From Candidatus Rariloculus versatilis (GTDB lineage: Bacteria; Pseudomonadota; Gammaproteobacteria; Steroidobacterales; Rariloculaceae), in NCBI GenBank assembly GCA_028278665.1, contig JAQAJI010000030.1:1-63335 (forward strand): DNA of 63,335 nucleotides. Direction: 5' to 3'. The notes beneath the pieces were generated by a model that was not told where the DNA came from, did not search any database, and worked only from the letters and a program-made list of their open reading frames with translations. Position 1 is the first letter of the stretch, and each line of letters begins with the position of its first letter. Below, piece by piece: positions 8,352 to 63,335 of this stretch. Position numbers and translations under genes: made by a program.

Positions 8352-8395
8352 CGGAGTTCCAACCATGAAGAACGCGAACTGACGGAGTTCGGACC

Positions 8396-10559: not shown

Positions 10560-10568
10560 GCCGGCCGC

Positions 10569-18795: not shown

Positions 18796-19159
18796 TCGAT
18801 TCCCCTTGAGATGATCTGTTCCTGAATCACTGCGACGGGCAGATTCCGCCGCACGTCACGTTCGAAAACCGAAGGATAGGCGAATGACGGCGCGCGTGCA
18901 CCAACCGGCCGGTACGCTTGTTGTAAGACTGTTTTGACAACGATGCTAAGGCGCGGCTGCACAACACGGACGGGCTTGGCGGTACAATCGGAACGATCAG
19001 GACAGCCTCGAAGTACATTGGAGACTTCGGCATTGCAACGGAGTGCGGTTTCGGTCGACGCCCAGTCACACAATTTTCCGAGCATCCACAAAAGAAGCTG
19101 CAAGTTTCCTCGGGCGAACATGAATTATTCCGACTCATCATGAATCAGAGGCACGTGAA

Positions 19160-45587: not shown

Positions 45588-48614
<3,027 letters not shown>

Positions 48615-48651
48615 GGGACCCGGAATCGATCCGATTCACGTTGTTGTAGGG

Positions 48652-49056
48652 TTGATCGGCGACGAACACGGCCGGGTGCTGATCGGCCAGCGGCATGCCG
48701 CCACGCACATGGGTGGTGCGTGGGAGTTTCCCGGCGGCAAGTGCGCGCCGGGCGAGCTGGCGCGGGATGCGCTTTGCCGTGAACTCGACGAGGAACTCGG
48801 GATCGCCGTCGAGCACGCCGAACCGTTGCTCGACTACGTGCACGATTATCCGGATCGTCGCGTGAGGCTCGACGTCTGGCTCGTGCATCGCTATCGCGGC
48901 GAACCGCACGCTCGCGAGGGCCAGCGCCTGCGCTGGGTGCGCGTCGACGAGCTCGCCGAGTCAGGCCTGTTGAGTGCCGACCGGCCGATCCTCGATGCGC
49001 TTGAGAGTCAGGAGCCCGTTAGGGCTGCCGGTCAGCACAAGGCAAGCAGAAACTGA
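48652..49056 (+). CDS. mutT: 8-oxo-dGTP diphosphatase (Nudix) MutT
   Basis: Nudix box GGAWEFPGGKCAPGELARDALCRELDEELGI. The start is problematic (see finding). Confidence 0.8.
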   Translation: MIGDEHGRVLIGQRHAATHMGGAWEFPGGKCAPGELARDALCRELDEELGIAVEHAEPLLDYVHDYPDRRVRLDVWLVHRYRGEPHAREGQRLRWVRVDELAESGLLSADRPILDALESQEPVRAAGQHKASRN

Positions 49057-49835
49057 AGTTCCCCGGAAACCTGCAGCGGACGGCTGTCGACGCCCTGCCA
49101 TTCAACGAAACGGATCGTGAACTGGTGCTTGCCTGCACTGAATTCCGGGTAGATGCCGTTGCCGGCCGGCAGCATGACGCGGATCAGATTGTAGTGCGTC
49201 CTGCGATCGAGCTTGTGGATGTAGTGGCCGTCGTACGCGATGCGTTCGACCGGATCGCTCGTCTCGCGAAGCAGCGTGAGCACTTCATCGACCGCATTGC
49301 ATAGCGGCTTGAGATAGTTGGCCCACACCAGGAGCTGATCGGCGCGTTCGGCGTAGGGAAGGTTCAGCCAGTAGCCGTATTCGGGCAGGTCGAAACCGCA
49401 AGTCCCGCCGGGAATCCAGCTGCGGTGCTTGATCGCGCTCAGAAACTCATTGTCCTTCAGTGGACCGACGAGGTGCGGGCCGTAGGATGCAAGTTCGCTT
49501 TTGAGATTGCCGATGCCTTCGATGATCGAATCGAGACGATCGGTATCGACCTCGGAAGTCTGCCGAAACCGGTTCAGCATACCGTCGATGCGATCGAGTT
49601 CCTGGAGCGCCTCCGCCCGCACGTCGCCGTGCGCGAGGATCGAAAGAATGCCGAGCAGGCTGTTCACCGCTTCGCGCGAACTCAGATCGGTTTCGCTGTT
49701 CGTATGAAACAGCGCCTGCCGGTACAGCAACTCTATCCGAAGAAACGTTCGGATTCGTTCGGACAGCGGCTGCTCGAACTTTACGAATTCCTCGCTGGGA
49801 ACCGCTTCCGGAAGATTCTGCACAGTGCTCGCCAT
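49032..49835 (-). CDS. zapD: cell division protein ZapD
   Basis: FEQPLSERIRTFLRIELLYRQ is the ZapD signature. I chose ATG 49835, which lies 4 nt after the coaE stop, over 49886. Confidence 0.8.
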   Translation of the reverse strand: MASTVQNLPEAVPSEEFVKFEQPLSERIRTFLRIELLYRQALFHTNSETDLSSREAVNSLLGILSILAHGDVRAEALQELDRIDGMLNRFRQTSEVDTDRLDSIIEGIGNLKSELASYGPHLVGPLKDNEFLSAIKHRSWIPGGTCGFDLPEYGYWLNLPYAERADQLLVWANYLKPLCNAVDEVLTLLRETSDPVERIAYDGHYIHKLDRRTHYNLIRVMLPAGNGIYPEFSAGKHQFTIRFVEWQGVDSRPLQVSGELQFLLALC

Positions 49836-49839
49836 CGGG

Positions 49840-50463
49840 CTATTCTGCGCGACGTTGCCCTGCTCGGCAAACGCGGGCGAGATCAAGATAGCGTTTGTGC
49901 AGCTTCTCGACCTGCCGTCGGGTCGAAGCCCGCCGGCCCCCGGCGCTGATCACATCGTCGGCGGCCGCAAGCCGCGCAGCCCGGTCGGCCTGTGCGCCGA
50001 TCGCTGCTTCGGCTGCGGTTCGATCAATGCCGTCGCGTAGCATCAGCCGTTCAATCCGAGTTCCAACCGAGCAGTCTACCACCAGGACGCGCGAAACATG
50101 TTCGGCGAACCCGGTCTCCACGAGCAAAGGGACCGCGGCGATCACGTAGGGACCCTCGGCCTGCTCGAGCAGGGCCAGCGTTCGTTCGCGAATCCGGGGG
50201 TGCAGGATGGCTTCCAGGTCACGACGCCGGTCCGCATTCTCGAAGATGATCCCGCGCAGCGCCCGTCGATCCAGCTCACCGCGCGGGTCGATAACGCCTG
50301 CGCCGAAAGCGCGGCGCACTTCCTCGAGCGCAGCTTGCCCCGGCGCCACGACCTCGCGGGCGACCGCATCCGTGTCGACCAATGCGGCGCCGAGACTCGT
50401 GAACATGTCCGCGACCGTTGACTTGCCGCTCGCGATGCCGCCCGTGAGTCCGATGCGCAACAC
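49840..50463 (-). CDS. coaE: dephospho-CoA kinase
   Basis: IGLTGGIASGKSTV P-loop at the N-terminus. 207 aa. Conserved position between pilD and zapD. Confidence 0.85.
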   Translation of the reverse strand: MLRIGLTGGIASGKSTVADMFTSLGAALVDTDAVAREVVAPGQAALEEVRRAFGAGVIDPRGELDRRALRGIIFENADRRRDLEAILHPRIRERTLALLEQAEGPYVIAAVPLLVETGFAEHVSRVLVVDCSVGTRIERLMLRDGIDRTAAEAAIGAQADRAARLAAADDVISAGGRRASTRRQVEKLHKRYLDLARVCRAGQRRAE

Positions 50464-50507
50464 GCTATTGAGCCTTCCCGTTCATCCTGAATTTCCCCTT
50501 GCCCGCG

Positions 50508-51392
50508 CTAAAGCGGAAGGTGCCGGTACATGTTCATGAGATCGGTTCCCCAGAGCAGGGCGATCCAGCCGGCGGCCGCGAGATACGGGCCGAACGGCAG
50601 CGCCGCGCCCCGCGATCTCCGGCCTGACGCAATCAGAAAGATCCCGACGATCGAGCCCGCCGCGGCGGACAGGACGATGACAAGGGGCAGGAGCTGCCAG
50701 CCGAGCCATGCACCAAGCGCCGCGAGCAGCTTGAAGTCACCGTAGCCCATGCCGTCCTTGCCGGTCACGAGCTTGAACAGTTGGTACACGATCCACAGGC
50801 TCAGGTACCCCGCCGCGGCCCCGATCACGCTGTCGCGCAGCGTCGCGAAGAGCGGCGCGCCGTCGACCGCGACGAGCGCAAGCAGCAACCCGGCCCACAG
50901 CAGCGGCAACGTCAGGCTGTCCGGCAGCAGCTTGTGTTCGCCGTCGATCACGGCGAGCGCCACCAGCGTCCACGTGAACGCGAGTGCGGCGACGGTCTGC
51001 CAGCTCGGACCGAATACCCAGGCGACGGTCAGGCTCGCGACTGTCGCGAAGATTTCCACGAAGGGATAGCGAAGCGAAACTGCCTCTGCGCAGTGTGCGC
51101 ACCGTCCCTTGAGCCAGAGGAAACTCAGGACCGGGATGTTGTGCCGTGCGGCAACTCTCTGGCCGCAATTCGGGCATGCGGACGGAGGCCATCGGAGGTT
51201 GAACGTGGAGCCCCGGGCGTGGGGAGGTGGTGCGAACGGTTGGTCCTCGGCTTCGCTGCACTGCCGGCGCCAGGCGATCTCCATCATGATCGGGAGACGC
51301 CAGACGACGACATTCAGGAAGCTGCCGGCCACCAGGCCCAACACGCCACAGGCGAGGAAAAGTGCCGCCGGCCAGATCTCGAAGACTTCCAC
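50508..51392 (-). CDS. pilD: prepilin peptidase / N-methyltransferase (A24 family)
   Basis: CPNCGQ...CAHC cysteine pairs, GYGDFKLLAALGAWLG, multiple TM segments. Confidence 0.9.
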   Translation of the reverse strand: MEVFEIWPAALFLACGVLGLVAGSFLNVVVWRLPIMMEIAWRRQCSEAEDQPFAPPPHARGSTFNLRWPPSACPNCGQRVAARHNIPVLSFLWLKGRCAHCAEAVSLRYPFVEIFATVASLTVAWVFGPSWQTVAALAFTWTLVALAVIDGEHKLLPDSLTLPLLWAGLLLALVAVDGAPLFATLRDSVIGAAAGYLSLWIVYQLFKLVTGKDGMGYGDFKLLAALGAWLGWQLLPLVIVLSAAAGSIVGIFLIASGRRSRGAALPFGPYLAAAGWIALLWGTDLMNMYRHLPL

Positions 51393-51657
51393 GTGTACTT
51401 ACCGCGCCTGCCCGTTGCCCGGTTCGGGAACCGACGTCATGGTCGACCCTGTTCACCGACGACGGCCCGCAGGAAGTGGCGTCGCTGTGCTCACCGGGCG
51501 GATACGCTCACTATTGTCACCGGGCGGAAAGCGGGTTTCCATAGGTTTCTATGATCGGCCAGCGCAAGAGGTCACCCGCGTAATTCCTGGATCGTCATTC
51601 AAGTATTTGAAAAACGAAGGTTGTTCCGAATTTCAGGTGTCTTGCTTGAAATTCTCG

Positions 51658-52875
51658 CTAGATGACGGCGCCCATCCTGAAGATCGGCAGATACATCGCG
51701 ATGACGAGTCCGCCGACGAGGACGCCGAGCACGGCCATGACGAGCGGCTCGATCAGGCTCGACATGCTGTCGACGGCGTGGTCGACCTCTTCTTCGTAGA
51801 ACTCCGCGACCTTTGCCGCCATTTCGTCGAGCGACCCCGATTCCTCGCCGACCGCGACCATCTGATTGACCAGATTGGGAAACAGATCCGTGCTCTGCAT
51901 CGCCTGCTGCAGCTGCTGCCCGGCCGCGACATCGTCGCGCAGCCTGAGCACCGCGGTTTCGTAAACGCAGTTGCCGGTCGCACCGGCGACGGACTCCAGT
52001 GCCTCGACGAGCGGCACGCCGGCCGCAAAGGTCGTGGCGAGCGTACGCGCGTAACGGGCGATGGCCGACTTGGTCAGGATGGAACCGACGACCGGTGCTC
52101 CGAGCGCCACCCTGTCGGTAAAGCGGCGCACGCTTCGATAGCGGCGCTTTGCCTGCAGATATCCGGCGACGGCCACGACGACCGCAACCGCGATGGTCCA
52201 GCCCGTGTCGCGCACAAATTCGGAGATGGCGATCACGACTCGCGTGAAGGCGGGCAAGGCGGCGCCGAACCCCTGAAACAGTGACTCAAACTCCGGAATC
52301 ACGTAGATCAGCAGGATCGCGGTGACAACCACGGCGACCGCCACCACGGCAGCCGGGTAGAACAGGGCGCGCTGGACCTTTCTCTGGATCGACTCCGACT
52401 TCTCCTTGTACGACGCGATCTTCTCGAGCAAGGTGTCGAGCGCTCCGGCGCGCTCGCCTGCGGCAACGAGCTTCACGTAGAGATCGTCGAAGTGTTTCGG
52501 ATGCCCCGCGAGCGCATCGGCGAGCGCCGTGCCGCCCTCGATGTCGGACTTGATCGCCAGCACGAGCTTCTGCATCGCCGGCTTGTCGTGCCCGCTGCCG
52601 ATGATGTCGAACGCCTGCACGAGCGGAATGCCGGCGTTCATCATCGTTGCCAGTTGCCGCGAGAAGATCGCGATATCGCTCGTGGTGATGCGCCGCGTTG
52701 CCCCGTGAAACCGGGACTGCCTGCGTACGCGCCTCGGCGCGACCCCCTGCCGGCGAAGCTCCCGACGCACCGCGGCGGCGTTGACCGCGACGGTCCTGCC
52801 CCTGACCGACCGACCCGTGCGGTCGGTTCCTTCCCAGCGGAACGGGAGCTGTCTATGCCTGGTGGATCGAGCCAT
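51658..52875 (-). CDS. pilC: type IV pilus platform protein PilC (GspF family)
   Basis: 405 aa with two GspF-type repeats (FSRQLATMMNAGIPLVQAF... and FARTLATTFAAGVPLVEAL...) and three TM segments. Confidence 0.9.
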   Translation of the reverse strand: MARSTRHRQLPFRWEGTDRTGRSVRGRTVAVNAAAVRRELRRQGVAPRRVRRQSRFHGATRRITTSDIAIFSRQLATMMNAGIPLVQAFDIIGSGHDKPAMQKLVLAIKSDIEGGTALADALAGHPKHFDDLYVKLVAAGERAGALDTLLEKIASYKEKSESIQRKVQRALFYPAAVVAVAVVVTAILLIYVIPEFESLFQGFGAALPAFTRVVIAISEFVRDTGWTIAVAVVVAVAGYLQAKRRYRSVRRFTDRVALGAPVVGSILTKSAIARYARTLATTFAAGVPLVEALESVAGATGNCVYETAVLRLRDDVAAGQQLQQAMQSTDLFPNLVNQMVAVGEESGSLDEMAAKVAEFYEEEVDHAVDSMSSLIEPLVMAVLGVLVGGLVIAMYLPIFRMGAVI

Positions 52876-52979
52876 GCGTCAGTCCGGGCGCGGGATCGCC
52901 GGGCATGACGACACGCGAATCCGCTTTCGCCGGGCGAGTCGAGGCATGAGTCGGCGTCCGGGCTGAATCGTCCGTGAGG

Positions 52980-54578
52980 TCAATCGACGGTGATCCGGTT
53001 GATCTCCTCGAGACTGGTGATGCCTTCCCTGACCGTTCTGAGGCCCGACATCCTGAGATCGGCCACGCCGTCTTCGGCGGCCTGCTCGGCGATCTGCATG
53101 ACATTGCCTCCCTGCATGATGATCCGGCCGATCGGTTCGGTCACCGGCATGACCTGGTAGATGCCGATCCGCCCGGAGTAACCGCCGTTGCAGCGGTTGC
53201 AGCCCGTGGCCTGGAACACGCTCGTCATCGCCTCGACATCGGCCGGCGCGAACCCTTCGCCGAGCAGCGCTTCGGCCGGCAACTCGACGGCTTTCTTGCA
53301 GTTGTTGCACAGGCGGCGCGCGAGACGCTGCGCGATGATCAGGCTCACCGAGCTTGCGATCGCGTAGGGCTTGACGCCCATGTCGACCAGGCGGGTCAGC
53401 GTTCGCGGCCCATCGTTCGTATGCAGCGTCGACAGGACAAGGTGCCCGGTCTGCGCCGCCTTGATCGCGATCTCGGCAGTTTCCAGATCGCGTATCTCGC
53501 CGACCATGATGACATCGGGGTCCTGACGCAGGAATGCGCGCAGCGCCGAAGCAAACGTCAGCCCGACTCTGGGACTGACGTTGACCTGGTTGATGCCGGG
53601 CACGTTGATCTCCGCCGGATCTTCCGCGGTTGAAATATTCCGGTCCACGGTGTTCAGTACATTGAGCCCCGCGTAGAGCGAAACTGTTTTACCGCTGCCC
53701 GTTGGCCCGGTGACGAGGATCATGCCGTAGGGCTTCATGAGGTTGTCGACATAGGCGCGTTTCTGGGCGGCGTCGTAACCGAGCGAATCGATCCCGAGAC
53801 GGACGCTCGAGGGATCGAGCAGGCGGCAGACGATCTTCTCTCCGAAGAGCGTCGGACAGGTATTAACGCGAAAGTCGACGCTGCGAGTGCCCGACAGCCG
53901 CATCCTGATGCGGCCGTCCTGCGGGATCCTTCGTTCGGCGATGTTCAGCCGCGCCATGACCTTCAGACGCGCCGCGACCTTCATCGCGAGCGACGCCGGC
54001 GGCCGGGCGATTTCCTCGAGCACGCCGTCCATTCGCAGGCGGACGCGGCAGTACTTCTCGTAGGGCTCGAAGTGAATGTCGGACGCAGATCGCCGGATCG
54101 CGTCGTGCATGATCCGGTTGACGAAACGCACGATCGGGGCCTCCTCCACATCGGCGCCGGCCGTGTCCGTGGGCGCGCCCTCATCGGCCGTGGGAGCGTC
54201 GATGTCGGCGTCGTCGAACTGTGCGTCATCGAAACTCGCAAGCGTCGTGTCGACCGCTTCAATGGCGCGCGCGACGCGGGCTTCGAGCTTGTCCTCTTCG
54301 ACGACGACGGGTTCGACGCGCAGCGATGTCTGAAACCTGATGTCATCGAGCGCCTTGACGTCGGTCGGGTCACCGATGCCGACGTAGAGGCGATTGCCGC
54401 GTTGCTTGAGCGGCAGCACGCGATGCCTTGCGAGCAGTTCTTCATCGACCAGCCTGACGACCTCGAGATCGAGTTCCATCGCATCGAGGTCGAACACCGG
54501 GACGCCGAACTTGCGGCCGGCCGCAACCGCGGTTCTGCGATAACTGCCCGAGTCGGACCCGGCGGACAGCGGAGTCAC
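52980..54578 (-). CDS. pilB: type IV pilus assembly ATPase PilB, N-terminally short
   Basis: LVTGPTGSGKT, MVGEIRDLETAEIAIKAAQTGH and a CNNC...CNRC tetracysteine. Start trimmed from 54680 to GTG 54578, which overlaps the pilA stop as GTGA. Confidence 0.85.
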   Translation of the reverse strand: MTPLSAGSDSGSYRRTAVAAGRKFGVPVFDLDAMELDLEVVRLVDEELLARHRVLPLKQRGNRLYVGIGDPTDVKALDDIRFQTSLRVEPVVVEEDKLEARVARAIEAVDTTLASFDDAQFDDADIDAPTADEGAPTDTAGADVEEAPIVRFVNRIMHDAIRRSASDIHFEPYEKYCRVRLRMDGVLEEIARPPASLAMKVAARLKVMARLNIAERRIPQDGRIRMRLSGTRSVDFRVNTCPTLFGEKIVCRLLDPSSVRLGIDSLGYDAAQKRAYVDNLMKPYGMILVTGPTGSGKTVSLYAGLNVLNTVDRNISTAEDPAEINVPGINQVNVSPRVGLTFASALRAFLRQDPDVIMVGEIRDLETAEIAIKAAQTGHLVLSTLHTNDGPRTLTRLVDMGVKPYAIASSVSLIIAQRLARRLCNNCKKAVELPAEALLGEGFAPADVEAMTSVFQATGCNRCNGGYSGRIGIYQVMPVTEPIGRIIMQGGNVMQIAEQAAEDGVADLRMSGLRTVREGITSLEEINRITVD

Positions 54579-55063
54579 GGCCGGCAGGCGCCAGGCAGGT
54601 GTTGCGGGGCGATGGTCGTGGCGCCCGGGTTCGTATTGGCGCCCATGGGGTTGGCGATCGTCGGCGCCGCGAGGCCGCACTGCCAGATGATGCTGTCTTC
54701 GGCCGTCAGGTGCGGAGTCATCACCAGAGTCTGACCGGCAAGGTTCGAGGCGTTGGCGTCATTGCCGTAGGTGATGATGACTTCGCCGTCGACGATCTCC
54801 AGTTGCGCGACATATCTGCCTTGCGTGTTGGTGGCGGCGGCGCTGAGCCCGGCGGCCTCGCGGTTGGCCGGCGCCGTGCCCCGATAGAGATAGGTTTCGG
54901 CGATCGCGGCCTGGGCAGCCGACGCAAGGTTGATGCCCTCGGCAACCTGGGAACGGACAGTGTAGTCCTGATACGAAGGGATGGCGACCGCCGCGACGAT
55001 TCCGATGATTGCGATCACGATCATCATTTCGAGCAGCGTGAAACCCGAATGGATCTGCTTCAT
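54575..55063 (-). CDS. pilA: type IVa major pilin
   Basis: Leader MKQIHSG followed by FTLLEMMIVIAIIGIVAAVAIPSYQDY. C-terminal Cys pair (WQCG...PGACRP). Confidence 0.85.
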   Translation of the reverse strand: MKQIHSGFTLLEMMIVIAIIGIVAAVAIPSYQDYTVRSQVAEGINLASAAQAAIAETYLYRGTAPANREAAGLSAAATNTQGRYVAQLEIVDGEVIITYGNDANASNLAGQTLVMTPHLTAEDSIIWQCGLAAPTIANPMGANTNPGATTIAPQHLPGACRP

Positions 55064-55275
55064 TTCGGTGCGCCTCGAGTTTGTGTCCTTGTGCTAGGCA
55101 TCGTGCGGCATATCCGCCTGGGCGGGGTAGCCCGGAATAGGGCGAATGTGGCCGGAAATTGACGTGCACTCGGAGTTGTTGCGCGCGCAGCAATCACTGT
55201 CGAAGGATGGTCTTGAATGCGACTCACCAAGCACAACTTCGAGCGCCAGCTTGCACTGAATCGCGAAGACGTCGG

Positions 55276-55875
55276 TCAAGACAGAGGCAACGACTCGAGG
55301 TGTCGATTCCGTATCAGCGACACGAAATGATCTTCGATCTGCCTTGCGATCAACCGGGAATCGATCAGGAGACCGAGTTCGATATTGCGCTCCTGAGCTG
55401 CCTCCGTGAAATTCGCGGAGGTCACAAGCGCCTCCTGGCCGTCGATGACCACGCACTTAGCGTGCAACGCGCTGGCTGTCCGAGCTGAAGGTAGCAGGGA
55501 TCGCGGGTCGTAATAGACGCGAGGCAGTCGTTTCCCAGGCCACTCGTCACGCACGAAGTCAGACGCGAAGCGCCTGACGATGTCTCGTTCCACGGTGGTG
55601 CTCCCATGCTGGCGGCGAACGTCGATGCAGAGGATGGCTTCGAGCGCGTCGTCATTGTCGAGGCGATCTGCCAGCGCCTTGAACACCGCCCGTCCCTGAT
55701 GGACGGCAAAACCGACAGCCAACACCCGCTCTCGCGCTTTGCCGAAGAGCTGCCGAGTGACCACGCCGGTATCGCGGGCGCCCCCGCTTGAATCCGGTCC
55801 GCTGACGACGACCTCGACACGCGGCGACACATCATCCGAGGGCTGGGCGCCGGCAGCGTAAGCGCGAAGTAGCAA
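55276..55875 (-). CDS. drmC: DISARM DrmC-like phospholipase-D (single HKD) nuclease domain; 3' portion of a frameshifted gene
   Basis: ALHAKCVVIDGQEALVTSANFT is an HxK(x)4D(x)6GSxN-type HKD motif. It is the last gene of the helicase/DUF1998 operon. Confidence 0.7.
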   Translation of the reverse strand: MLLRAYAAGAQPSDDVSPRVEVVVSGPDSSGGARDTGVVTRQLFGKARERVLAVGFAVHQGRAVFKALADRLDNDDALEAILCIDVRRQHGSTTVERDIVRRFASDFVRDEWPGKRLPRVYYDPRSLLPSARTASALHAKCVVIDGQEALVTSANFTEAAQERNIELGLLIDSRLIARQIEDHFVSLIRNRHLESLPLS

Positions 55876-56074
55876 CGCGATTTGCCGGGGTCGCAGGTCT
55901 TGCCGAGCCAGGTGCCCCGAGGCACTGCGCGATCACAGTCGCACACTCGTCCGGAATGTGGTCGCGCAGCGCCAAGACACCGTAAGGCGGTGTGAGGAGG
56001 CTGGCATCGAGGAGATCCGCCAGCCGCAGGAGATCGCCTCGGCGCAGAGCGGCCAGCACGGCGAAATCCGTCAC
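55832..56074 (-). CDS. probable 5' fragment of drmC in another frame
   Basis: The GTG start at 56074 overlaps the drmB stop (GTGA). The 80-aa ORF runs into the PLD ORF, and removing one base from a G4 run (55915-55918) fuses the two into a roughly 265-aa protein. Confidence 0.45.
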   Translation of the reverse strand: MTDFAVLAALRRGDLLRLADLLDASLLTPPYGVLALRDHIPDECATVIAQCLGAPGSARPATPANRVATSRLRCRRPALG

Positions 56075-57879
56075 GGTTCGTACTTGGGCAGATCGAAGAA
56101 CGCCGCATCGGCGACCGCAACCGTCGGGACGACGAGCGCCCGGTCGAGAAAATCGTTGCGCTGCTCGCAGCTCGTTTCAGCGATCAGCAGGCAACCGTGA
56201 CACGCTGCGCCCTGCAACATGCGGCCCTCAAGCCGGGAATTGGGCGCGTGTTCCGCGCACACGGGGTCGTTCGAGCACAGTCGACCTTCGTTCAGCGCGC
56301 GGCGAAGGTGGGATTCGATCCGGCGCCCCGTCTCGACCAGGCCGCCCAGCGTTCCTTCGGAGTCGGACGAGCCTGTATAGATCAGGATTCCGTAGCCGCC
56401 GTCTCCGGCGTAGACGCGTTCGCGCAGCGAACTGGCCGGATAACCGCAATCAAGCGCAATTGACGTCATCAACATGTGCGACAGAGAGTGCAGCATCACA
56501 TAAGGGAGACCGGGAAACCCGTCCTCCGGCCGACGACGCTCGGCGGCCCAGGCGCGCCAGCCTTTCTCGATGCGTCGACCGCGCTCCCGGACGCCGGACC
56601 GCTCGATCCAACGATCGATCGCGTCGTTTCGGAACGACAGAAATATCCCTTCACCACGATTTTCTACAGCGGGCAGCCAGGTGATCGTTTCGGCGAGCGA
56701 CGCACGGGCGACCTCAAGGTCAAGCTCGCCGTTCTTGTCGGGGCTGATGGCCTCGAAGCGCGTAAATCCGAGCAGGGAGACCACTTCACGCAAACGATGC
56801 ACCAGAACCAACTTGTCAATGCTTGCCACGAGCCCGTCCCGTCCGGAATCCCAAGCTTCGCGCGGCAGCGTTTCCGCATGGAATCGGGAGCGTGGTTCAT
56901 GCTCGCCAATGACCGGGTCGCCCTTGTCGAGTATGTCGAACTCCGCGGACTTGACCGGAATGTCGTCCCGTTCCCCGTCCCCTTTTTGGCGGCGGAATTC
57001 TGCGCTTACCGTCTCATCGGCGATGCCGTCGAATGCTGCGTCGAGTTCCGGGATCATCCGGAAGTTTGCCAGTGCGCCAAGATCATCGGCTGCCTTCAGG
57101 CGTTCATAGTGCGTCGAAACTTTTGCAGCCAGCCCGGCGTCGTATTCGGGCAGCGAAATAACGCTCATGATTTGCGGGAAATACGCGTTGCTCGCCGTGC
57201 GCACCAAAAGCCGGTAGGGCTCTCCGCAACCTTCCCGGGCGTACTGTCCGATCCACGGCCGCTTGCCCTCACAGTGGCCAAGCGCACCGGTGCCGGGCAT
57301 GGAGGCCTCGTACAGCGAACGTTCCTCTCCGCAATCGCATACGCCGAAGGTGTCACCAATGTCGGCGCCCGTTCCCCGCTCTTCCAGCCACAGGGGACGC
57401 TGGCAGGCGTTGCCACCCTGGTGAACGAACCACCGCCAATCGAGATCGTCGATGTGGCCCCGCCGGCAGCCGCACACGAACCGTACCGGAACGACCGGCT
57501 TGCGTTTGCCGTCTTCGTCGCGGAACTGGCGCTTTTCGAGGTGATCCCACCGGACCAGTCGGCGGCGGCGCCATTGCCGGTTGCGGGGCGATGGGCGGGC
57601 GTCCTTGACGATGAACCATGTCGGGAAGATGCGCGCGCCGACGGGCGCAACTTTTCGCGCGTTCTCTTCGTGGCGCGGCGGTGTCCACAGCTCCAGCGTG
57701 GGAACGTCCAGCAACCGTCGGAGCTTTGCGGTCAAACGGGGCTCGTCGATTTTCTCGCGCCGCAGATGCGCCCAGTCCTGCAGGCCGGAGACAATTACGG
57801 AATAGTCCGGAAGATCGATCATCGCGCCCGGTCCGTGGGTCGTGATTAACTGACTCTGTCGGAGGATATTGTCGGCCAC
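56071..57879 (-). CDS. drmB: DISARM DrmB-like DUF1998 protein
   Basis: 602 aa. Cys-rich blocks VRFVCGCRRGHIDDLDW and CDCGEE. C-terminal MLHSLSHMLM...GGLVE...ACHGCLLIAETSCEQRN is typical of DUF1998 proteins paired with helicases. Starts 5 nt after the drmA stop. Confidence 0.8.
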   Translation of the reverse strand: MADNILRQSQLITTHGPGAMIDLPDYSVIVSGLQDWAHLRREKIDEPRLTAKLRRLLDVPTLELWTPPRHEENARKVAPVGARIFPTWFIVKDARPSPRNRQWRRRRLVRWDHLEKRQFRDEDGKRKPVVPVRFVCGCRRGHIDDLDWRWFVHQGGNACQRPLWLEERGTGADIGDTFGVCDCGEERSLYEASMPGTGALGHCEGKRPWIGQYAREGCGEPYRLLVRTASNAYFPQIMSVISLPEYDAGLAAKVSTHYERLKAADDLGALANFRMIPELDAAFDGIADETVSAEFRRQKGDGERDDIPVKSAEFDILDKGDPVIGEHEPRSRFHAETLPREAWDSGRDGLVASIDKLVLVHRLREVVSLLGFTRFEAISPDKNGELDLEVARASLAETITWLPAVENRGEGIFLSFRNDAIDRWIERSGVRERGRRIEKGWRAWAAERRRPEDGFPGLPYVMLHSLSHMLMTSIALDCGYPASSLRERVYAGDGGYGILIYTGSSDSEGTLGGLVETGRRIESHLRRALNEGRLCSNDPVCAEHAPNSRLEGRMLQGAACHGCLLIAETSCEQRNDFLDRALVVPTVAVADAAFFDLPKYEP

Positions 57880-57884
57880 GGCAG

Positions 57885-60800
57885 CTATTCGATGTCCTGT
57901 CCTTCAGGAGTCTTGATGCCCAGGAGCACGCTGGGTTCGACGTCCCGCAACGAACGGGGCGCCCGAAACCGAAGCTGCGTGTCGTTCAGCACATCGCGCT
58001 CCGGGTCGATCATCTCCCGCAACAACGGCGTCGCGATGCCGGTGCCGTAACGCGTGTAACCGAACTTGACGCCTCCCTCGCCGGCTTGGCGAGCGAGGCT
58101 CGCCCAGTCGTCGATCAGGCTCAGCACGCGGTTTCTGACGTGATCGCCGAAACTATCGGGGAGGTCGTCTGCGTGCGCTTGCGCTCGTTCACCCACCGCC
58201 TTCGCCAGTTCCGCGGAATGAGTGCCGTGACTCTCGACATCCCCGGCCGCGGCCATCGCCGTCAGCTCGGGAATCCCGAGCCGGGCCAGGGCCACCGATA
58301 CCGCCGGCAGTCCCCGATCCATCGCCCGGGGGGAAAACGGAGTCACGCCCGTTGCCTCCACGCCACGGTAGAAGGACTCGTGCCATGCGGAGAAGCGCTC
58401 GTAATGGGAGCGGTCGCGCGGTTTGTGGACATTCAGCAGGGCAACGACGAGCCCGGGCCGATTCGGGTCGCGACCCACCCGGCTCGTCGCCTGGATGTAT
58501 TCCGCGGTGGTTTTCGGCTGGCCCGAGACGACCATCAGCCCGAGCCGCGTAATGTCGAGCCCCACCGAAATCATGTTGGTCGCAAGCGCCACGTCCACAC
58601 GGTCGTTCCCGGCGAAACCCAGGGCGAGTTTGCGCTTGGCTTCGGCGACGGCGGCCGTGCCGACACGCGAGGTCAGCTCGACCGGATCGAACCCGATTCG
58701 CCTGTCCGCAAACAGCGGCGCCGGATCGTTGAGGCGCCTGCGCCCGGAATACGTCTGGAGCCGCGAACTGACCTCGTCCTCGACAATGCGGCGGGCGCTC
58801 CCGAGTTCCCGCAGCGCATTGAAGTAGGCGACGAGCGTCATGTACGGATCGGCGGGGTTCGGGTCCGCTTGTCCCGCCGCAGCGTCCCAGACCGCCTGCG
58901 CCGCAGCCATCAGCGTGATCGCGCTGCGCAGGAACACCACTTTCGGCCCGCGACCCTGGGCGGCGATGCCGAGATACAGACGCGGGTTCACTGTCGATGC
59001 CGGCGCCTGCTCGGCAATGAACGAATCTCGCCGGTCGATGCCCGGCGGCGGGAACACCGCGACGGAGTTTCGACCGAAAAGTGCGCGAATCTGCTTGTTG
59101 GCAAGCCGCACAGTGGCGGTCGATGCGATGATCTTCGGGCGCACCTTCTTGCCATCGACACGGCGCAGGCAAAGCTGATCGAGCGCGGTTTCATAAAGTC
59201 CGGCCATCGTGCCGAGCGGACCCGAAATCAGATGCAACTCGTCCTGGATGATGAGGTCGGGCGGGCGCGGATCGGTTGGGTCGCCGCCCCTGAAGAACCC
59301 CGCCGTCTCGCCGGTCCATGGCATGGCGGCGAACTTGTCGGCGGTGGCGATCATGAAGGCCGGCAGGCGCTCGTAGATCGGCTCGTCCACCGCGACAATG
59401 GGCAGCGAACGCTTCGCTCCGCGGAAGTCGCAACGCCGATTGACGCAGCGCACCAGCAGATTCGAGGGGTTGTTGGTGTCGGGCGTCAATTGGAAGGAGT
59501 GTTTCGCGAATTTCGTGCCGCACCAGGGGCACTGGTCCAGCGGCAGCGGTGGCTCATTCGAGCTATCGCGGGAAAAGCGCAGGGTGCGGATGCGGGCGCT
59601 CTTGTCGGATCGGTCGCCGTTCTTGCCCATGTAGTTGGGGGTCGCGGCGCGGCCCACCCACAACGCGATTTCAAAGGGCCAGGCGCCGAGCCTGTCCGGC
59701 GCCACTTCGCGCTCCAGTTCCAGCGCGCAGATCAGGGCCGCTGCACGACCGAGCTGGTCGAGCGTCAGCAGCCGGAGCGTGTAGCGCATGAGCACGGACA
59801 GCCCGCGATGCACGGGATCCGGGTCGCGCAGACGGCGCAGGACAAGCGTGAACGCGGCCAGCCCGAGATACGCCTCGGTCTTGCCGCCGCCGGTCGGGAA
59901 GAAAAGGAGATCGACGATCTCACGCTCCACATGGTTTGGCTCGGCGATGCCGCGCAGGTTCATCAGGATGTAGGCAAGCTGAAACGGGCGCCAGGCCGGG
60001 GGATGGACGGCTTCGGGGGCACGTCCCTGTTCCTGCGCCCGACGCCGCCGCGAAGCCGCGGCCATGGCGCGATTGGCGATACGGAAGGCTGCCAGAAGTT
60101 CGGGGTCTTCGAGAAGACTGATGCCAGCCTCGATGCGGTTCGCCGCGACCGCTGCCCTGCGCACCAGTTCGTTCGCCACCTCACCGCGTCTGCCCGTAAA
60201 TGTCTGCGCCTCCTCGCCTTGAGCCTCGATCCACTTGCGGTAAGCGCGGACCAGCGGAATCAATGCCCGCTTCGCAGCAGCGCCGTCCTCCAGAGCGCCC
60301 AGCGCCTCCATTGCGAACTCGACATCGGGAATTCCGGACGGTTCGACTCGCTCCACAACTGCAAGCGGCATCCATTCGGTATGGACTTGCCGACACTCGC
60401 CATCGACGGCTTCGGTACGTGTCGACACGTTGTGGCCGACTGCGTATTCGGCCGCGTCCCGATAGTGCAGGTCGGCCAGACGCTCATCCCAATCCTCGCT
60501 GTCAAGACCGCTCGGGTCGAATCGCGGAAGGAACGGGCGATCCGCGGTCGCGGACATTTCGACTTGGAAGGCGTATGCGGTATCTGCCATATCGTCGTCT
60601 TCCGCCGCTTGGCGCCGGTTGACCACGAACACGGAAACGGCGCGGGCACCGGTTTCGCCCTCGGGTTGGCGGAGCCGAGTGGGCCGAGCCAGGCAAACGA
60701 CCTCAAGGCCGTTACTGTACTGGAGGATGCGATGCGCGGGTGTGCCGCCTTCAAGGGATGCGAGATCGAGGGAAACGCTCGCCGCGCGTGGGTCACGAAC

Positions 60801-61265
60801 CCACGGAGAAAATCGGCGGCGGCCGGAGGATCCGGCGGTAACGGCGCCGGAGGGATCCGGTTCGGTGGCTGCGTGGCTCTTCTGTTCTTCCTCAGGTGCG
60901 TAGTCGCCCCAATTCACAGCGATATCAAGGCGCGTGGCCGATGCGTCCAGCAGTACGCTGAATCCCATTGACGACGGTAGAAAGGCGCGCTTGCCGCTGC
61001 CTCGCTCCGGCTCCCGTGCATCGTCCGCGCCCTGCGGCGGTTCGACGGGCTCGTCGATTTCCTCTTCAATGTCCTGGGCTCGCTGCCCTTGCGGCGCGTC
61101 GGACGGCACCAGGAAGCCGGTGAGATACCAGCGGGACGGCGCTTGCGGCAGGCGTTCGCACTGGAGGGCTTCGTCGTTGGACCTTGGCCCGATCAGGTCG
61201 AGCCGCAGCGCGTCCACAAGGCGAGCGCGGACTTCCGCGCTATCGGATGGCGGCGCGCCCATCAC
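57885..61265 (-). CDS. drmA: DISARM DrmA-like superfamily-2 helicase
   Basis: 1126 aa. N-terminal LDLIGPR...PSRWYLTGFLVP, FFPTGGGKTEAYLG (motif I), IIQDELHLISGPLG (DExH), ATNMISVGLDITRLGLMVVSGQPKTTAEYIQATSRVGR (motifs V-VI). Confidence 0.8.
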   Translation of the reverse strand: MMGAPPSDSAEVRARLVDALRLDLIGPRSNDEALQCERLPQAPSRWYLTGFLVPSDAPQGQRAQDIEEEIDEPVEPPQGADDAREPERGSGKRAFLPSSMGFSVLLDASATRLDIAVNWGDYAPEEEQKSHAATEPDPSGAVTAGSSGRRRFSPWVRDPRAASVSLDLASLEGGTPAHRILQYSNGLEVVCLARPTRLRQPEGETGARAVSVFVVNRRQAAEDDDMADTAYAFQVEMSATADRPFLPRFDPSGLDSEDWDERLADLHYRDAAEYAVGHNVSTRTEAVDGECRQVHTEWMPLAVVERVEPSGIPDVEFAMEALGALEDGAAAKRALIPLVRAYRKWIEAQGEEAQTFTGRRGEVANELVRRAAVAANRIEAGISLLEDPELLAAFRIANRAMAAASRRRRAQEQGRAPEAVHPPAWRPFQLAYILMNLRGIAEPNHVEREIVDLLFFPTGGGKTEAYLGLAAFTLVLRRLRDPDPVHRGLSVLMRYTLRLLTLDQLGRAAALICALELEREVAPDRLGAWPFEIALWVGRAATPNYMGKNGDRSDKSARIRTLRFSRDSSNEPPLPLDQCPWCGTKFAKHSFQLTPDTNNPSNLLVRCVNRRCDFRGAKRSLPIVAVDEPIYERLPAFMIATADKFAAMPWTGETAGFFRGGDPTDPRPPDLIIQDELHLISGPLGTMAGLYETALDQLCLRRVDGKKVRPKIIASTATVRLANKQIRALFGRNSVAVFPPPGIDRRDSFIAEQAPASTVNPRLYLGIAAQGRGPKVVFLRSAITLMAAAQAVWDAAAGQADPNPADPYMTLVAYFNALRELGSARRIVEDEVSSRLQTYSGRRRLNDPAPLFADRRIGFDPVELTSRVGTAAVAEAKRKLALGFAGNDRVDVALATNMISVGLDITRLGLMVVSGQPKTTAEYIQATSRVGRDPNRPGLVVALLNVHKPRDRSHYERFSAWHESFYRGVEATGVTPFSPRAMDRGLPAVSVALARLGIPELTAMAAAGDVESHGTHSAELAKAVGERAQAHADDLPDSFGDHVRNRVLSLIDDWASLARQAGEGGVKFGYTRYGTGIATPLLREMIDPERDVLNDTQLRFRAPRSLRDVEPSVLLGIKTPEGQDIE

Positions 61266-61336
61266 GGATTCCAGGAAGCGGTCGCGGACACGTTGTCAGA
61301 AATGCCGCAGAAATTCCGCCGCCATGCGCTCATGAT

Positions 61337-61531
61337 TCAAAAGGCCTTGTTCAGACCGGCCTGCGCGAGCACGGCATTCGCAGTGTGCCGCGACTTGATG
61401 TTGCCGTCCACCGGGAAATGCTTGCCGGAAATGGGGCTGAACCAGATTTCGTGGTCCCCTCGCCCCTGACGTACCCGTCGGCAACCCGCTTCCCGCAATT
61501 TCCCTTTCAGCGGTCTCGTAAAGCCGGCCAC
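61337..61531 (-). CDS. hicA: HicA-family toxin (mRNA interferase)
   Basis: 64 aa. LREAGCRRVRQGRGDHEIWFSPISGKHFPVDGNIKSRHTANAVLAQAGL follows the HicA/YcfA pattern. The GTG start overlaps the upstream stop by 1 nt. Confidence 0.7.
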   Translation of the reverse strand: MAGFTRPLKGKLREAGCRRVRQGRGDHEIWFSPISGKHFPVDGNIKSRHTANAVLAQAGLNKAF

Positions 61532-61776
61532 TATCCCGCCAAACGAATCGTTTCCAGTCTGCTTGACATCATGCGCAGGGGAATCGCTTCAACCGCCAGT
61601 TCATCGAAGAGCTTCCGGTTGAGCTCGTACAGTTCAGGTACGAGTTCGCGGATCTTGTCCTGCAATTCGCGCTCCGAGGCCGCTTCGGCAACCAGGCCCG
61701 GAAAGTTGGTGTCCGAGACGTACCAGACACCGGCTTCCTCGTCCCGGGAAATCTCCGCAAAATAGTTATGATCCAT
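61531..61776 (-). CDS. DUF1902-type (HicB-like) antitoxin
   Basis: The last 81 codons of track ORF 61531..62232. MDHNYFAEISRDEEAGVWYVSDTNFPGLVAEAASERELQDKIRELVPELYELN is the DUF1902 pattern. The ATG at 61776 is preceded by GGAGG. Confidence 0.7.
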   Translation of the reverse strand: MDHNYFAEISRDEEAGVWYVSDTNFPGLVAEAASERELQDKIRELVPELYELNRKLFDELAVEAIPLRMMSSRLETIRLAG

Positions 61777-61811
61777 GTCGCCTCCGGGGCCGTTCCGCCG
61801 AGGTAACGGAA

Positions 61812-63335
61812 TTATGCCCTTTTGTCCCTGTTGTCGGCCATGACCTTCGACCGGGGCCGCGCAGCCATCCGTTCCTCGATTGCGCGTTCTGCGTTCAGGG
61901 CCATGAGCCTTGCGAGCATTTCGTCGCGGACTTCGTCCGGCCAGCGGTAGCGGTAGGGTTTTTTCTTCCTGCCCCAGGTCTCTTCGTCGATCTCGTAGTC
62001 CAGCAGGAACTCGCAATCGGTGGGGATGTCGGTCCAGCCGTAGGCGTCGAGAACGGCGCGGTCCACGGCCGCGTGCAGCTCTCGAAGCTTCGCTATCCGG
62101 GGATCGCGCTCGTCCGGATTGTGAAAGCGGTTGTAGGTCTTCGTCATACCCTCGTCGTTCTCGACCATCAGAGCCGCGCGGAAGCTGTAATACGTTTCGC
62201 CAGCGGCTTCGAGCGAGGGGCTTGTTTCCCAATCCGGCGGGAAGGGGAAGGTCTCGAAGCAGTCGGAGGGGGTGTAGCGGAGGTCGTCCTTCATGGACGA
62301 TCCGAAGAAACGCGCCCAGATTTCATGGGGACGGGATTGAAGCGCGCAGAAGGCGGCGTGGGTGTCGAATGGGAAAACAACGCATGAGTCGCTGTGGATC
62401 ACTTTGCCGGGCAGTAAGGTAAAAGCAGCGTGTTGCCCATAGCGAGAAATCGCAACTACGCGATCCATGCCGTCGATGGAGGCATTTAGCTCCTTCGCTT
62501 GGTGGTAAAATTGCCACCAGATTTTCGCCCTTCGCCCATGACTCGATTTGCTGTTCTTAGAGGAATTTTCACGCTCAGGTCTGACTTTCTCGTCGACAAT
62601 CTTCAAAAGTTCCGGCCAGTCTTGTGCTACTGAGTGGGGGTAGTCCACAGGGACAATGCCGCTTCGACGCCATTCTTGCCGTTGGTGCTGGTCTGCGTCG
62701 CGCCACAGAGCACCCAATTCCATTCGACACAGCGGCCGGTTGCGGAAGTTGATGACGTAGCGATGGTGTGCATGAGTCGGGCTCGTGTTGACTTCCTCGC
62801 CGCCGATGTAGGGAACAATTACGTTACTGTTAAGCGGGTTTTGCTCGATTAGACGGCGGATTTCGGTGAGCGGTGAGGCAACGCCCTTCTTATCGGTGTC
62901 GTCGAACGTGAAACCCATGCCGAGGAGGAGGCTGCCTCGGAAGCTCTTGCCGACGTTGGACTGTAGTTTCTCGGGGTCGTCATGACCGCCGTCGTGAAAT
63001 AGGAAAGCGGTGATCCGATCGACATCGTTCCCATCGAGACGGCATGGAACGTGACGATGTCCCTTTGTAACGTGGACCACGCTCACCACCACGGCAGCCA
63101 CACCGGGCCATCTGAGGCGGCGCTGAACTCGAAATATCTCACCGCCGTTCACGCATATCCAACGTAGTCCCGACGCTCGGGTGTCGCCCTGCCCAATAGT
63201 GTTCGTGGCAATTAGTCCGAACGTACCTCCAATTCCGAACAGATTGAATGCCCGACGAAAAAAATGCGCCACCAAGTCGCACTTGCCCCCACTTCCGAGA
63301 TGGATTTGGCGAAGCCAATCCGTGTAGCCGCGCAC
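61812..63335 (-). CDS. drmMI: C-terminal part of a large N6-adenine DNA methyltransferase (DrmMI / MmeI-YeeA-like); 5' end beyond the window
   Basis: CDLVAHFFRRAFNLF...GLIATNTIGQGDTRASGLRWI and C-terminal TYNRFHNPDERDPRIAKLRELHAAVDRAVLDAYGW resemble the non-catalytic C-terminal halves of MmeI/YeeA-class methyltransferases. The catalytic NPPY region would lie upstream of 63335. Confidence 0.65.
   Translation of the reverse strand: MRGYTDWLRQIHLGSGGKCDLVAHFFRRAFNLFGIGGTFGLIATNTIGQGDTRASGLRWICVNGGEIFRVQRRLRWPGVAAVVVSVVHVTKGHRHVPCRLDGNDVDRITAFLFHDGGHDDPEKLQSNVGKSFRGSLLLGMGFTFDDTDKKGVASPLTEIRRLIEQNPLNSNVIVPYIGGEEVNTSPTHAHHRYVINFRNRPLCRMELGALWRDADQHQRQEWRRSGIVPVDYPHSVAQDWPELLKIVDEKVRPERENSSKNSKSSHGRRAKIWWQFYHQAKELNASIDGMDRVVAISRYGQHAAFTLLPGKVIHSDSCVVFPFDTHAAFCALQSRPHEIWARFFGSSMKDDLRYTPSDCFETFPFPPDWETSPSLEAAGETYYSFRAALMVENDEGMTKTYNRFHNPDERDPRIAKLRELHAAVDRAVLDAYGWTDIPTDCEFLLDYEIDEETWGRKKKPYRYRWPDEVRDEMLARLMALNAERAIEERMAARPRSKVMADNRDKRA

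Follow-up and report, generated by a model that had tools for sequence, protein, structure and literature searches.

The minus strand of 55276-63335 holds a class 1 DISARM of the ordinary kind, an anti-phage operon that is cut at the edge of the window (the whole 63,335-nucleotide stretch of DNA analysed here). Its visible order is the C-terminal part of drmMI, hicB, hicA, drmA, drmB and a split drmC (Table 1). We put the probability of the whole proposal, a horizontally acquired class 1 DISARM with hicBA as autonomous cargo, at about 0.82. The region would then be the downstream two-thirds of an acquired operon with the full order drmD-drmMI-(hicB-hicA)-drmA-drmB-drmC, its insertion site adjoining pilA (type IV pilin) in a gammaproteobacterium of high GC content and its drmD expected beyond 63335.

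Gene content of the locus

A sequence-only reading had previously proposed a class 1 DISARM operon here. ORF translation and profile searches recovered its gene set, strand and coordinates, and its spacings were reproduced: the drmMI-hicB gap is 35 nt, the hicA-drmA gap 71 nt and the drmA-drmB gap 5 nt, and drmB overlaps drmC by GTGA. Not listed in that reading is a 1-nt overlap of the hicB stop with the hicA start, which fits translational coupling of the pair. Class 1 identity, a call for which PADLOC needs all five genes and prohibits drmE, is supported for drmMI, drmA, drmB and drmC by three profile libraries (PADLOC, Pfam and NCBIfam) and by synteny conserved in more than 70 related loci. 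DrmE had no PADLOC match among the seven products of 55276-63335. The toxin-antitoxin (TA) pair within the operon and the broken drmC frame, both described in that reading, are present.

Table 1. Positions of the genes and other features of the DISARM locus in the window
Feature	Position	Strand	Evidence
Spacer downstream of drmC	55164-55275	.	blastn of L117 against the window
drmC, single-HKD PLD-family nuclease gene, +1 frameshift	55276-56074	-	PADLOC DrmC on both pieces
Extra base breaking drmC	55914	-	C (minus-strand reading) directly after GGGG
drmB, 602 aa, DUF1998/MZB zinc-binding domain	56071-57879	-	PADLOC E=1.2e-74; PF09369
drmA, SF2/YprA-type helicase, 1126 aa from GTG	57885-61265	-	PADLOC E=1.8e-273; NCBIfam DISARM_DrmAS NF038325
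hicA-like toxin gene, 64 aa	61337-61531	-	Pfam HicA_toxin; AlphaFold2/Foldseek
hicB-like antitoxin gene, 81 aa, DUF1902	61531-61776	-	Pfam PF08972; PDB 1wv8
drmMI 3' part, C-terminal 507 aa	61812-63335	-	PADLOC DrmMI E=1.7e-158 and 7.2e-143; MmeI_TRD
Divergent drmMI segment, target-recognition region	62140-63335	-	nt identity to L116 and L115

The 1126-aa SF2 helicase of the earlier reading was identified as DrmA. Its translation contains the motifs PTGGGKTEAY, DELH and QATSRVGR, and it scored 1107.9 bits on the NCBIfam equivalog NF038325 (cutoff 950) and 29 bits on Pfam Helicase_C (pfam00271, cutoff 23.5). In relatives, gene callers chose the ATG at 61262 as the drmA start. The 602-aa product of the gene directly downstream, read earlier as a DUF1998 protein, scored above the cutoffs for both PF09369 (MZB, the former DUF1998; 37.9 bits against 24.2) and NCBIfam DrmB_fam (564 bits against 240). 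Exact-product look-ups for DrmA, with either start, and for DrmB gave no identical match. A plus-strand ORF of 961 aa (58086-60971) lies antisense within drmA; it is probably a shadow ORF that arises from the high GC content of drmA.

The drmMI frame is open up to the window edge, and the fragment aligns to positions 891-1323 of the 1347 in the PADLOC DrmMI profile. It scored 43.4 bits on Pfam MmeI_TRD (cutoff 27) and had no NCBIfam match. Full-length DrmMI relatives comprise 1325-1393 aa with N6_Mtase, MmeI_Mtase and Eco57I domains; about 885 aa of the window's DrmMI, including the catalytic domain, thus probably lie beyond 63335.

The drmC frameshift and the state of the operon

The description of the last gene as a frame-broken, single-HKD PLD nuclease was borne out. 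Its N-terminal piece (55832-56074) covers positions 4-50 of the DrmC profile in a frame that ends at 55832. The C-terminal piece (55276-55875), in a frame open from 55875, covers positions 66-265 (E=3.3e-64) and contains PLDc_2 (pfam13091) and one HKD motif (HAKCVVID...TSAN). Profile searches proposed in the earlier reading have therefore assigned all three of DUF1998 (PF09369), PLDc_2 and Helicase_C. The frame switch is also visible by tblastn of the DrmC of a related locus (L050). Because the +1 frameshift at 55914 splits the gene, no intact DrmC product is encoded. When repaired, the product scored 152.9 bits on the NCBIfam DrmC equivalog (cutoff 133); it was scored as …CLGHLARQ…, where relatives L116 and L115 imply …CLGDLARQ…, a difference of one residue that does not materially change the scores. 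The extra C is absent from all 15 aligned relatives (13 including L050, plus L115 and L116), and the 120 listed DrmC homologues are all about full length (235-287 aa). Homopolymer error was not favoured as the cause: the base follows GGGG and extends no C run, which is untypical of a homopolymer miscall. An indel introduced by sequencing or assembly is possible.

Close relatives place this lesion in context. The closest intact one, L116, shares 90.3% nucleotide identity over 8040 nt and encodes an SNF2 DrmD (1113 aa), DrmMI (1393 aa), HicB (81 aa), HicA (64 aa), DrmA (1125 aa), DrmB (602 aa) and an intact DrmC (287 aa). Amino acid identity to the window is 95% for DrmA and DrmB, 98% for HicA and 93% for HicB. 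The drmD-drmMI-hicBA-drm unit is also found with a different flank in L115, whose DrmA is likewise 95% identical; there, drmMI is split and hicA disrupted. A conspecific locus (L117), with 97.1% nucleotide identity over 8.5 kb of pilA-secA, carries hicB (97.5% aa identity) and hicA (100%) intact at the same site. Its DISARM was destroyed by at least four deletions, leaving only scraps of drmMI and drmA, with drmB, drmC and drmD absent. Past the island, the L117 flank is sucC. Intact L116, the frameshifted window and eroded L117 form a natural series, and the DISARM looks to be decaying in this lineage because the conspecific site has been shredded by deletions.

The window locus might on this evidence already be a non-functional remnant, with the drmC frameshift as its first lesion and only hicBA under selection. 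Such an account would fit the uniqueness of the frameshift among aligned relatives, its position outside a C homopolymer, the loss of all but hicBA in L117 and the two lesions of L115. Against it, DrmA (1126 aa) and DrmB (602 aa) are intact, as are the 507 aa of DrmMI that can be seen, and outside the divergent drmMI segment they are 95% identical to intact relatives; the extra C could itself be a sequencing or assembly artefact. Furthermore, drmC is experimentally dispensable in both class 1 and class 2 DISARM (DISARM literature), and the frameshift therefore need not abolish defence. We regard complete loss of function as possible but rather unlikely.

Horizontal acquisition of the operon, as in our preferred reading, is suggested by GC3, which is 0.68-0.77 for the DISARM genes and 0.80-0.85 for their neighbours on the flanks, and by flanks for which no similarity to related loci was found. 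Homology to L117 on the pilA side resumes at 55164, and the pilA-side island border therefore falls within 55164-55275. No island-flanking repeat was detected beyond short matches at chance level, and no tRNA is present in the window. Consensus scans of the region found no promoter-like site; terminator-like sites numbered 4 where chance predicts 7.5, and a weak hairpin spans part of the stop codon of hicA. Rfam gave no match at E <= 0.1 in the region. Genome and metagenome scans for the window's own contig found relatives at 78% identity or less, and an exact look-up of HicB returned a Logan contig of 2.1 kb that matches the window exactly; run SRR35761419 holds an identical stretch of that length.

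hicBA at the drmMI-drmA junction

HicA toxins act as mRNA interferases. The adjacent small genes between drmMI and drmA were assigned to a HicAB-type pair. HicB scored 41.6 bits on Pfam DUF1902 (PF08972, cutoff 22) and matched PDB 1wv8 (TTHA1013) with E=1.1e-6; its copies in L115, L116 and L117 are 92-98% identical. With 81 aa, it seems to lack a DNA-binding extension. HicA matched Pfam HicA_toxin just under the cutoff (E=1.3e-5; 25.7 bits against 27), and its fold assignment was confirmed by structure prediction. The AlphaFold2 model (pLDDT 83.7) has alpha-beta-beta-beta-alpha (H-E-E-E-H) topology, and its best Foldseek matches in the PDB were the HicA structure 6g26 (TM 0.71-0.75, probability 0.99), 1whz and 4p78. 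The weak Foldseek E-values (0.1) arise from the length of only 64 aa. A PDB sequence search with HicA gave only Rieske-protein matches, which were discarded as spurious. Neither HicA nor HicB matched an NCBIfam family or a PADLOC model.

The pair looks autonomous because hicB and hicA are intact in L117, where the DISARM is shredded. In a further locus, L118, the pair (86% and 89% aa identity) also stands free, with no Drm genes within 8 kb. A TA pair that outlives the defence system around it bears on defence-island turnover and on the accumulation of TA pairs in such islands.

The drmMI-drmA junction, which separates a drmD-drmMI module from a drmABC module, is where extra genes are preferentially embedded in this DISARM lineage. 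Counted in a DrmMI-selected sample of related loci, 43 of 76 have 0.5-9.4 kb inserted there, against 1/60 at drmA-drmB, 3/46 at drmB-drmC and 8/73 at drmD-drmMI. The cargo in relatives includes PDC-M50 (a membrane protein paired with a ThsB-like TIR protein), IetA/IetS, HEC-01, an NsnB-like ATPase and a PIN+HTH pair. Nearly all embedding in this lineage is thus at one junction, which holds varied defence cassettes. In L016, drmA itself has three interruptions of ~1.1 kb each; they were rejected both as inteins (no continuous ORF) and as copies of one IS (the inserts share no repeats). The sequence-only reading had regarded the embedded pair and the broken drmC as two departures from the canonical layout. 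Given the frequency of inserts at this junction and the experimental dispensability of drmC, they turn out ordinary, and the window supplies a further locus of class 1 DISARM.

Genes embedded in DISARM have been described under the term 'guilt-by-embedding' and argued to be mostly defence genes (Payne et al. 2024 bioRxiv 10.1101/2024.01.29.577857); the text of that paper contains 0 occurrences of HicA. By this argument hicBA could serve this DISARM lineage as a functional accessory, for instance as a regulator or as a backstop through abortive infection, and not be selfish cargo. It lies in the orientation of the operon at close distances (35 and 71 nt), consistent with co-transcription, the other cargo at the junction consists of bona fide or candidate defence systems, and the unit, with hicBA in it, is found in at least two genomic contexts and therefore moves as a block. 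We nevertheless find the accessory role doubtful, as hicBA, looked for in more than 100 related loci, is limited to a shallow clade (>=90% nucleotide identity), survives deletion of the DISARM in L117, stands free in L118 and lacks a PADLOC model match. A broader version, held more tentatively still, would make hicBA a selected functional layer (an abortive-infection backstop or island-stabilizing addiction module) and the junction a dedicated docking site for second-line effectors. If true, the docked effector would be a classical RNase TA pair, not yet listed as defence cargo.

drmD, drmMI and comparison with known systems

DrmD is the SNF2-like helicase (pfam00176) of class 1 DISARM. Among the 74 non-redundant related loci with enough upstream sequence, 73 have drmD upstream of drmMI, and in 65 it is directly adjacent; in the remaining locus, no DrmD match was found over the ~7 kb that precede drmMI. 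DrmD and full-length DrmMI were confirmed by PADLOC in L050 and L002. An undescribed reduced variant, consisting of drmMI-hicBA-drmABC only, had been raised for the case that drmD is absent. It would be compatible with the lack of a visible drmD in the window, with the one locus that yielded no DrmD match and with the protection against some phages that partial Serratia systems still give (DISARM literature). We judge it improbable because drmD is upstream in 73 of the 74 loci including L116; in both L116 and L115, near-identical and hicBA-bearing, a 1113-aa SNF2 gene abuts drmMI.

Within drmMI, nucleotide identity to L116 and L115 falls to 52-77% over the target-recognition region (Table 1), against ~95% over the rest of the locus. 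At the protein level, DrmMI identity is 71% to L116 and 62% to L115 (residues 4-388), while that of DrmA is about 95%. The segment looks like a mosaic or recombination tract. Since the loci are otherwise 95% identical, confinement of the divergence to the target-recognition region points to a switching of specificity.

The earlier reading had named as a refuting outcome that the methyltransferase is part of a type IIG restriction-modification or BREX module, unrelated to the helicase operon beside it. We consider this highly improbable: the fragment has an MmeI-like target-recognition domain (TRD) and also matches PADLOC type IIG REase-MTase profiles (E=5e-59), but the DrmMI profiles are far stronger (E=1.7e-158), PADLOC gave no PglX match for the fragment, E-values of full-length relatives are 0 for DrmMI and about 1e-11 for PglX, no BREX genes are present in the window and no BREX match was found among the seven PADLOC-scanned products of 55276-63335, and in dozens of loci from many phyla the same methyltransferase has its fixed place between drmD and drmA-drmB-drmC.

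We infer all biochemical activities and the co-transcription of the genes, and model the DISARM mechanism on the class 1 system characterised in Serratia and on cryo-EM work on DrmAB. DrmMI would mark self by m6A methylation of host DNA, its MmeI-type target-recognition domain determining the motif. The DrmA-DrmB helicase complex would be held autoinhibited by a trigger loop until activated by invading DNA with a 5' overhang; unmethylated DrmMI sites would boost the response, and the activated complex would then block phage and plasmid DNA. DrmD (SNF2) would contribute to defence, and the PLD protein DrmC would be dispensable, so that its frameshift need not end defence. hicBA would be an autonomous type II TA cassette that landed between the drmD-drmMI and drmABC modules and is probably co-transcribed with the operon. 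Most likely it acts as an addictive stabilizer or independent backup and is no integral DISARM subunit.

Type IIG MmeI-family enzymes and BREX PglX share with the window's DrmMI the MmeI-type target-recognition domain. Its high variability between near-identical loci is as expected of a specificity-determining module. DrmMI differs from them in its best-scoring profile, its fixed DISARM gene order, and the absence of BREX partners and of a stand-alone arrangement.

Compared with characterised HicAB type II TA systems (Burkholderia pseudomallei, PDB 6g26; Yersinia pestis HicA3B3, PDB 4p78), the window pair shares a HicA (64 aa in the window) with a predicted dsRBD-like fold and an adjacent small HicB-like partner with overlapping start and stop codons. 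It differs in its short DUF1902/TTHA1013-type antitoxin (81 aa) encoded upstream of the toxin and in the sub-threshold sequence match of its HicA to the Pfam model. As in the embedded genes of Payne et al. 2024, extra genes are nested in a multi-gene system in matching orientation, and the related loci hold PADLOC HEC/PDC candidates, IetAS and TIR pairs at the drmMI-drmA junction. The window cargo differs in being a classical HicAB-type TA pair without a PADLOC model.

The definition of class 1 DISARM comes from Ofir et al. 2018, and its characterisation was done in Serratia sp. SCBI (Aparicio-Maldonado et al. 2021; Bravo et al. 2022). The window stops short of the expected drmD and of the catalytic half of drmMI, and differs from that class in the drmC +1 frameshift and in the hicB-hicA pair between drmMI and drmA. 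The Serratia system has an additional cytosine methylase, drmMII, with none in the visible part of the window locus. Shared with the class are the DrmA helicase and the DrmB DUF1998 protein; together with a PLD-type drmC, here split, and the visible C-terminal part of DrmMI, a predicted MmeI-type adenine methyltransferase, they stand in canonical order, tightly coupled on a single strand. In close relatives, SNF2 drmD is directly upstream.

Gene content and the upstream end of the locus

Class 1 DISARM is defined by drmD (SNF2) and drmMI (an N6-adenine methylase) ahead of a drmA-drmB-drmC core. The gene series at 55276–63335 is an additional system of this already known type, as the sequence-only reading had correctly recognised, with accurate coordinates and details. 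The genes are densely packed on the minus strand, and ORF coordinates reproduced the spacings it reported (35, 71 and 5 nt, with a GTGA overlap joining the 602-aa ORF to the next); the hicB and hicA ORFs share 1 nt. Profile matches (PADLOC, Pfam and NCBIfam) and fold matches were collected gene by gene, and every domain named earlier is therefore present. The DrmMI fragment matched type IIG profiles far more weakly (E=5e-59) than the DrmMI profile. The second drmC piece carries PLDc_2 and one HKD motif. The AlphaFold2 model of HicA has an alpha-beta-beta-beta-alpha topology, with Burkholderia HicA (6g26, TM 0.71–0.75), 1whz and HicA3 (4p78) as top PDB matches. In general, toxins of the HicA type act as mRNA interferases independently of the ribosome, and HicB neutralises them.

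Genes of the DISARM locus with their profile and structure matches
Gene	Coordinates	Strand	Matches
drmMI, C-terminal part (507 aa)	61812-63335	minus	frame open to window edge; PADLOC DrmMI E=1.7e-158, profile positions 891-1323/1347; Pfam MmeI_TRD
hicB (81 aa)	61531-61776	minus	Pfam DUF1902 over threshold; PDB 1wv8 (TTHA1013) E=1.1e-6
hicA (64 aa)	61337-61531	minus	Pfam HicA_toxin 25.7 bits vs cutoff 27; AlphaFold2 pLDDT 83.7
drmA (1126 aa)	57885-61265	minus	PADLOC E=1.8e-273; NCBIfam equivalog 1107.9 bits vs cutoff 950; Helicase_C
drmB (602 aa)	56071-57879	minus	PF09369 (MZB, formerly DUF1998); NCBIfam 564 bits vs cutoff 240
drmC, two overlapping frames (55832-56074; 55276-55875)	55276-56074	minus	DrmC profile positions 4-50 and 66-265

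Whether drmD lies beyond the window edge was judged by comparison with related loci. Scans with the DrmMI fragment yielded 80 genome and 33 metagenome loci (103 non-redundant). A DrmD homologue was found upstream of drmMI in 73 of the 74 loci with sufficient upstream sequence, directly abutting it in 65, and PADLOC detected DrmD together with full-length DrmMI in loci L050 and L002. The closest relatives, L116 and L115, surfaced through a DrmC search. L116 (90.3% nucleotide identity over 8 kb) encodes an SNF2 protein (1113 aa), DrmMI (1393), DUF1902 HicB (81), HicA (64), DrmA (1125), DrmB (602) and an intact DrmC (287). L115 (93% identical) carries the same SNF2-DrmMI-hicBA-DrmABC unit with a different downstream flank. 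The reduced, drmD-less variant raised earlier as a possibility is thus unlikely, given drmD upstream in nearly all relatives and the SNF2 protein in L116. We consider it very probable (roughly 0.85–0.9) that drmD lies just past 63335. By analogy with L116, drmMI is predicted to start near 65990, where drmD would end, and drmD to start near 69330. In L115, drmMI is called as two genes (64–4531; 430 and 1028 aa), the second fused to a DUF1902 HicB domain, and hicA matches are split over two frames (4531–4720), reflecting either further decay or assembly indels.

The drmC frame break and erosion of the conspecific locus

The frame break in drmC noted from sequence was confirmed. Using an intact relative as tblastn query, the reading frame switches at residue 53, and DNA alignments placed one extra C at 55914, immediately after GGGG, which is missing in L116, L115, L050 and twelve further relatives. 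Among the matches listed from a large protein collection, all 120 DrmC homologues were approximately full length (235–287 aa), the best of them reached 87% identity, and none of the recorded sequences is an intact version of the same protein. The extra C lengthens no homopolymer, and the window's other long genes have uninterrupted frames; a true mutation is therefore slightly favoured over an assembly error. The break had been read as a departure from the canonical layout, but the novelty this suggested is not supported, since drmC is reportedly dispensable for defence in class 1 and class 2 DISARM alike.

The best HicB homologue (98%) lies in a conspecific genome, L117, on a 2.0-Mb contig (ENA ERZ25070917 ctg125676) with 97.1% nucleotide identity to window 46613–55164 (pilA-pilB-pilC-pilD-zapD-nudix-secA). 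Its pilA-adjacent counterpart (9487–11705) of window 55164–62952 has been eroded by at least four deletions. Two scraps of drmMI and three fragments of drmA (residues 1–295, 868–921 and 1010–1068) remain, L117 has no drmB, drmC or drmD, and hicB (97.5% aa) and hicA (100% aa) are intact; sucCD is next, upstream of the eroded locus. From the scraps and the intact pair, DISARM with hicBA was ancestral at the pilA site and was destroyed in L117, the toxin-antitoxin pair being conserved. This erosion, and a free-standing hicBA pair in another locus (L118), lend plausibility to the window's drmC lesion being a real first stage of decay. Intact, frameshifted and eroded loci form a series in which the pair survives, a by-product of modest interest.

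Mosaicism, island borders and the wider lineage

Nucleotide identity to L116 and L115 is about 95% from hicB through most of drmC, falls to 52–77% over 62140–63335 (the DrmMI target-recognition region), and is about 68% over 55253–55540. This last ~290 nt of the alignment takes in the drmC 3' end, including its HKD motif, and the opening bases of the spacer downstream; it is a second mosaic breakpoint at the pilA-side end of the island. The pattern is as expected for exchange of specificity domains (TRDs), a by-product of modest interest, and predicts a methylation motif that differs from that of L116/L115. In Serratia class 1 DISARM, drmA and drmB mainly mediate protection against phages and plasmids, which is enhanced when unmethylated methylase sites are recognised. 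A trigger loop keeps the DrmAB complex autoinhibited until DNA with a 5' overhang displaces it. If the window locus works likewise, as we assume, a DrmA-DrmB core under trigger-loop autoinhibition would act here, with enhancement at unmethylated sites.

GC3 of the DISARM genes (0.68–0.77) is below that of flanking housekeeping genes (0.80–0.85), and no flank similarity was found between the window and other related loci; both fit horizontal acquisition. The conserved housekeeping block that the island abuts on its pilA side (45588–55063) comprises secA, NUDIX/mutT-like, zapD, coaE, pilD, pilC, pilB and pilA, named from translations, ORF lengths and the L117 gene table; pilA was the one gene of the block scanned against a profile library, and no integrase was recognised near the visible island border. 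There is no tRNA anywhere in the window. Scans at the locus gave no match to an Rfam family, no significant repeat and no consensus signal for a promoter or terminator.

Relatives from the DrmMI-fragment genome and metagenome scans are 60–85% identical in amino acids and come from many phyla, including Alpha-/Gammaproteobacteria, Acidobacteriota, Bacteroidota, Chloroflexota, Actinomycetota, Planctomycetota and Spirochaetia. Many bear record names pointing to sponge symbionts (RHO and APA bins, Poriferisodalis, Spongiisociaceae). This range of hosts and names suggests that the DISARM lineage has spread widely by horizontal transfer within a single habitat. Gabija GajA/GajB (E=1e-220, 1e-183) lies immediately downstream of drmC in L002 (17570–21135), and GmrSD-like HEC-05 (E=7e-217) immediately upstream of drmD in L050 (2069–3817); both loci are located in defence islands. 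In relative L016 (11509–18189), three unrelated inserts of about 1.1–1.3 kb interrupt drmA. They share no repeats and leave no continuous ORF, so inteins and copies of one IS were rejected.

The nested hicBA pair

Across more than 100 related loci, hicBA homologues occur inside DISARM only in L115, L116, L001 (an identical short contig) and the eroded remnant L117; the insertion is therefore recent. L118 carries a pair (8001–8437) 86% (HicB) and 89% (HicA) identical in amino acids to that of the window, with no Drm genes within 8 kb. Retention of the pair in L117 after DISARM loss, and its presence in L118, point to hicBA as an autonomous cassette that maintains itself rather than a DISARM subunit. 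A further free-standing copy of this HicB family, also outside any DISARM, lies in L119 (8001–8243); the 86% amino-acid identity applies to the L118 and L119 copies. L119 shows no hicA match, and its copy may be an orphan antitoxin.

The drmMI-drmA junction is tight (about 45–200 nt) in 33 related loci and holds 0.5–9.4 kb of extra genes in 43 of 76. Inserts elsewhere are rare (drmA-drmB, 1/60; drmB-drmC, 3/46; drmD-drmMI, 8/73), and this bias toward a single junction is again of modest interest. Junction cargo was observed among loci L003–L111, for example at L009:11427-12488, L021:11543-14986 and 18740-20293, L037:19424-20014, L006:11508-12584 and L015:11627-12982. Cargo was highly varied and included PADLOC PDC-M50 (a membrane protein and ThsB-like TIR pair; 8–12 loci), IetA/IetS, HEC-01 (AAA_15/21 ATPase with DUF4276), an NsnB-like AAA_21 ATPase and a PIN + HTH_17 pair. 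PADLOC matched neither of two conserved cargo proteins encoded in L032 (13714-14937 and 14934-16001) and present in L039 and L092 as well. The pair had been read as a departure from the usual layout, but embedding is common and already published for DISARM (Payne et al., bioRxiv 10.1101/2024.01.29.577857). From that report and the cargo at one junction in 43 loci, the nested hicBA is thus an instance of known embedding, at the site preferred in this DISARM lineage.
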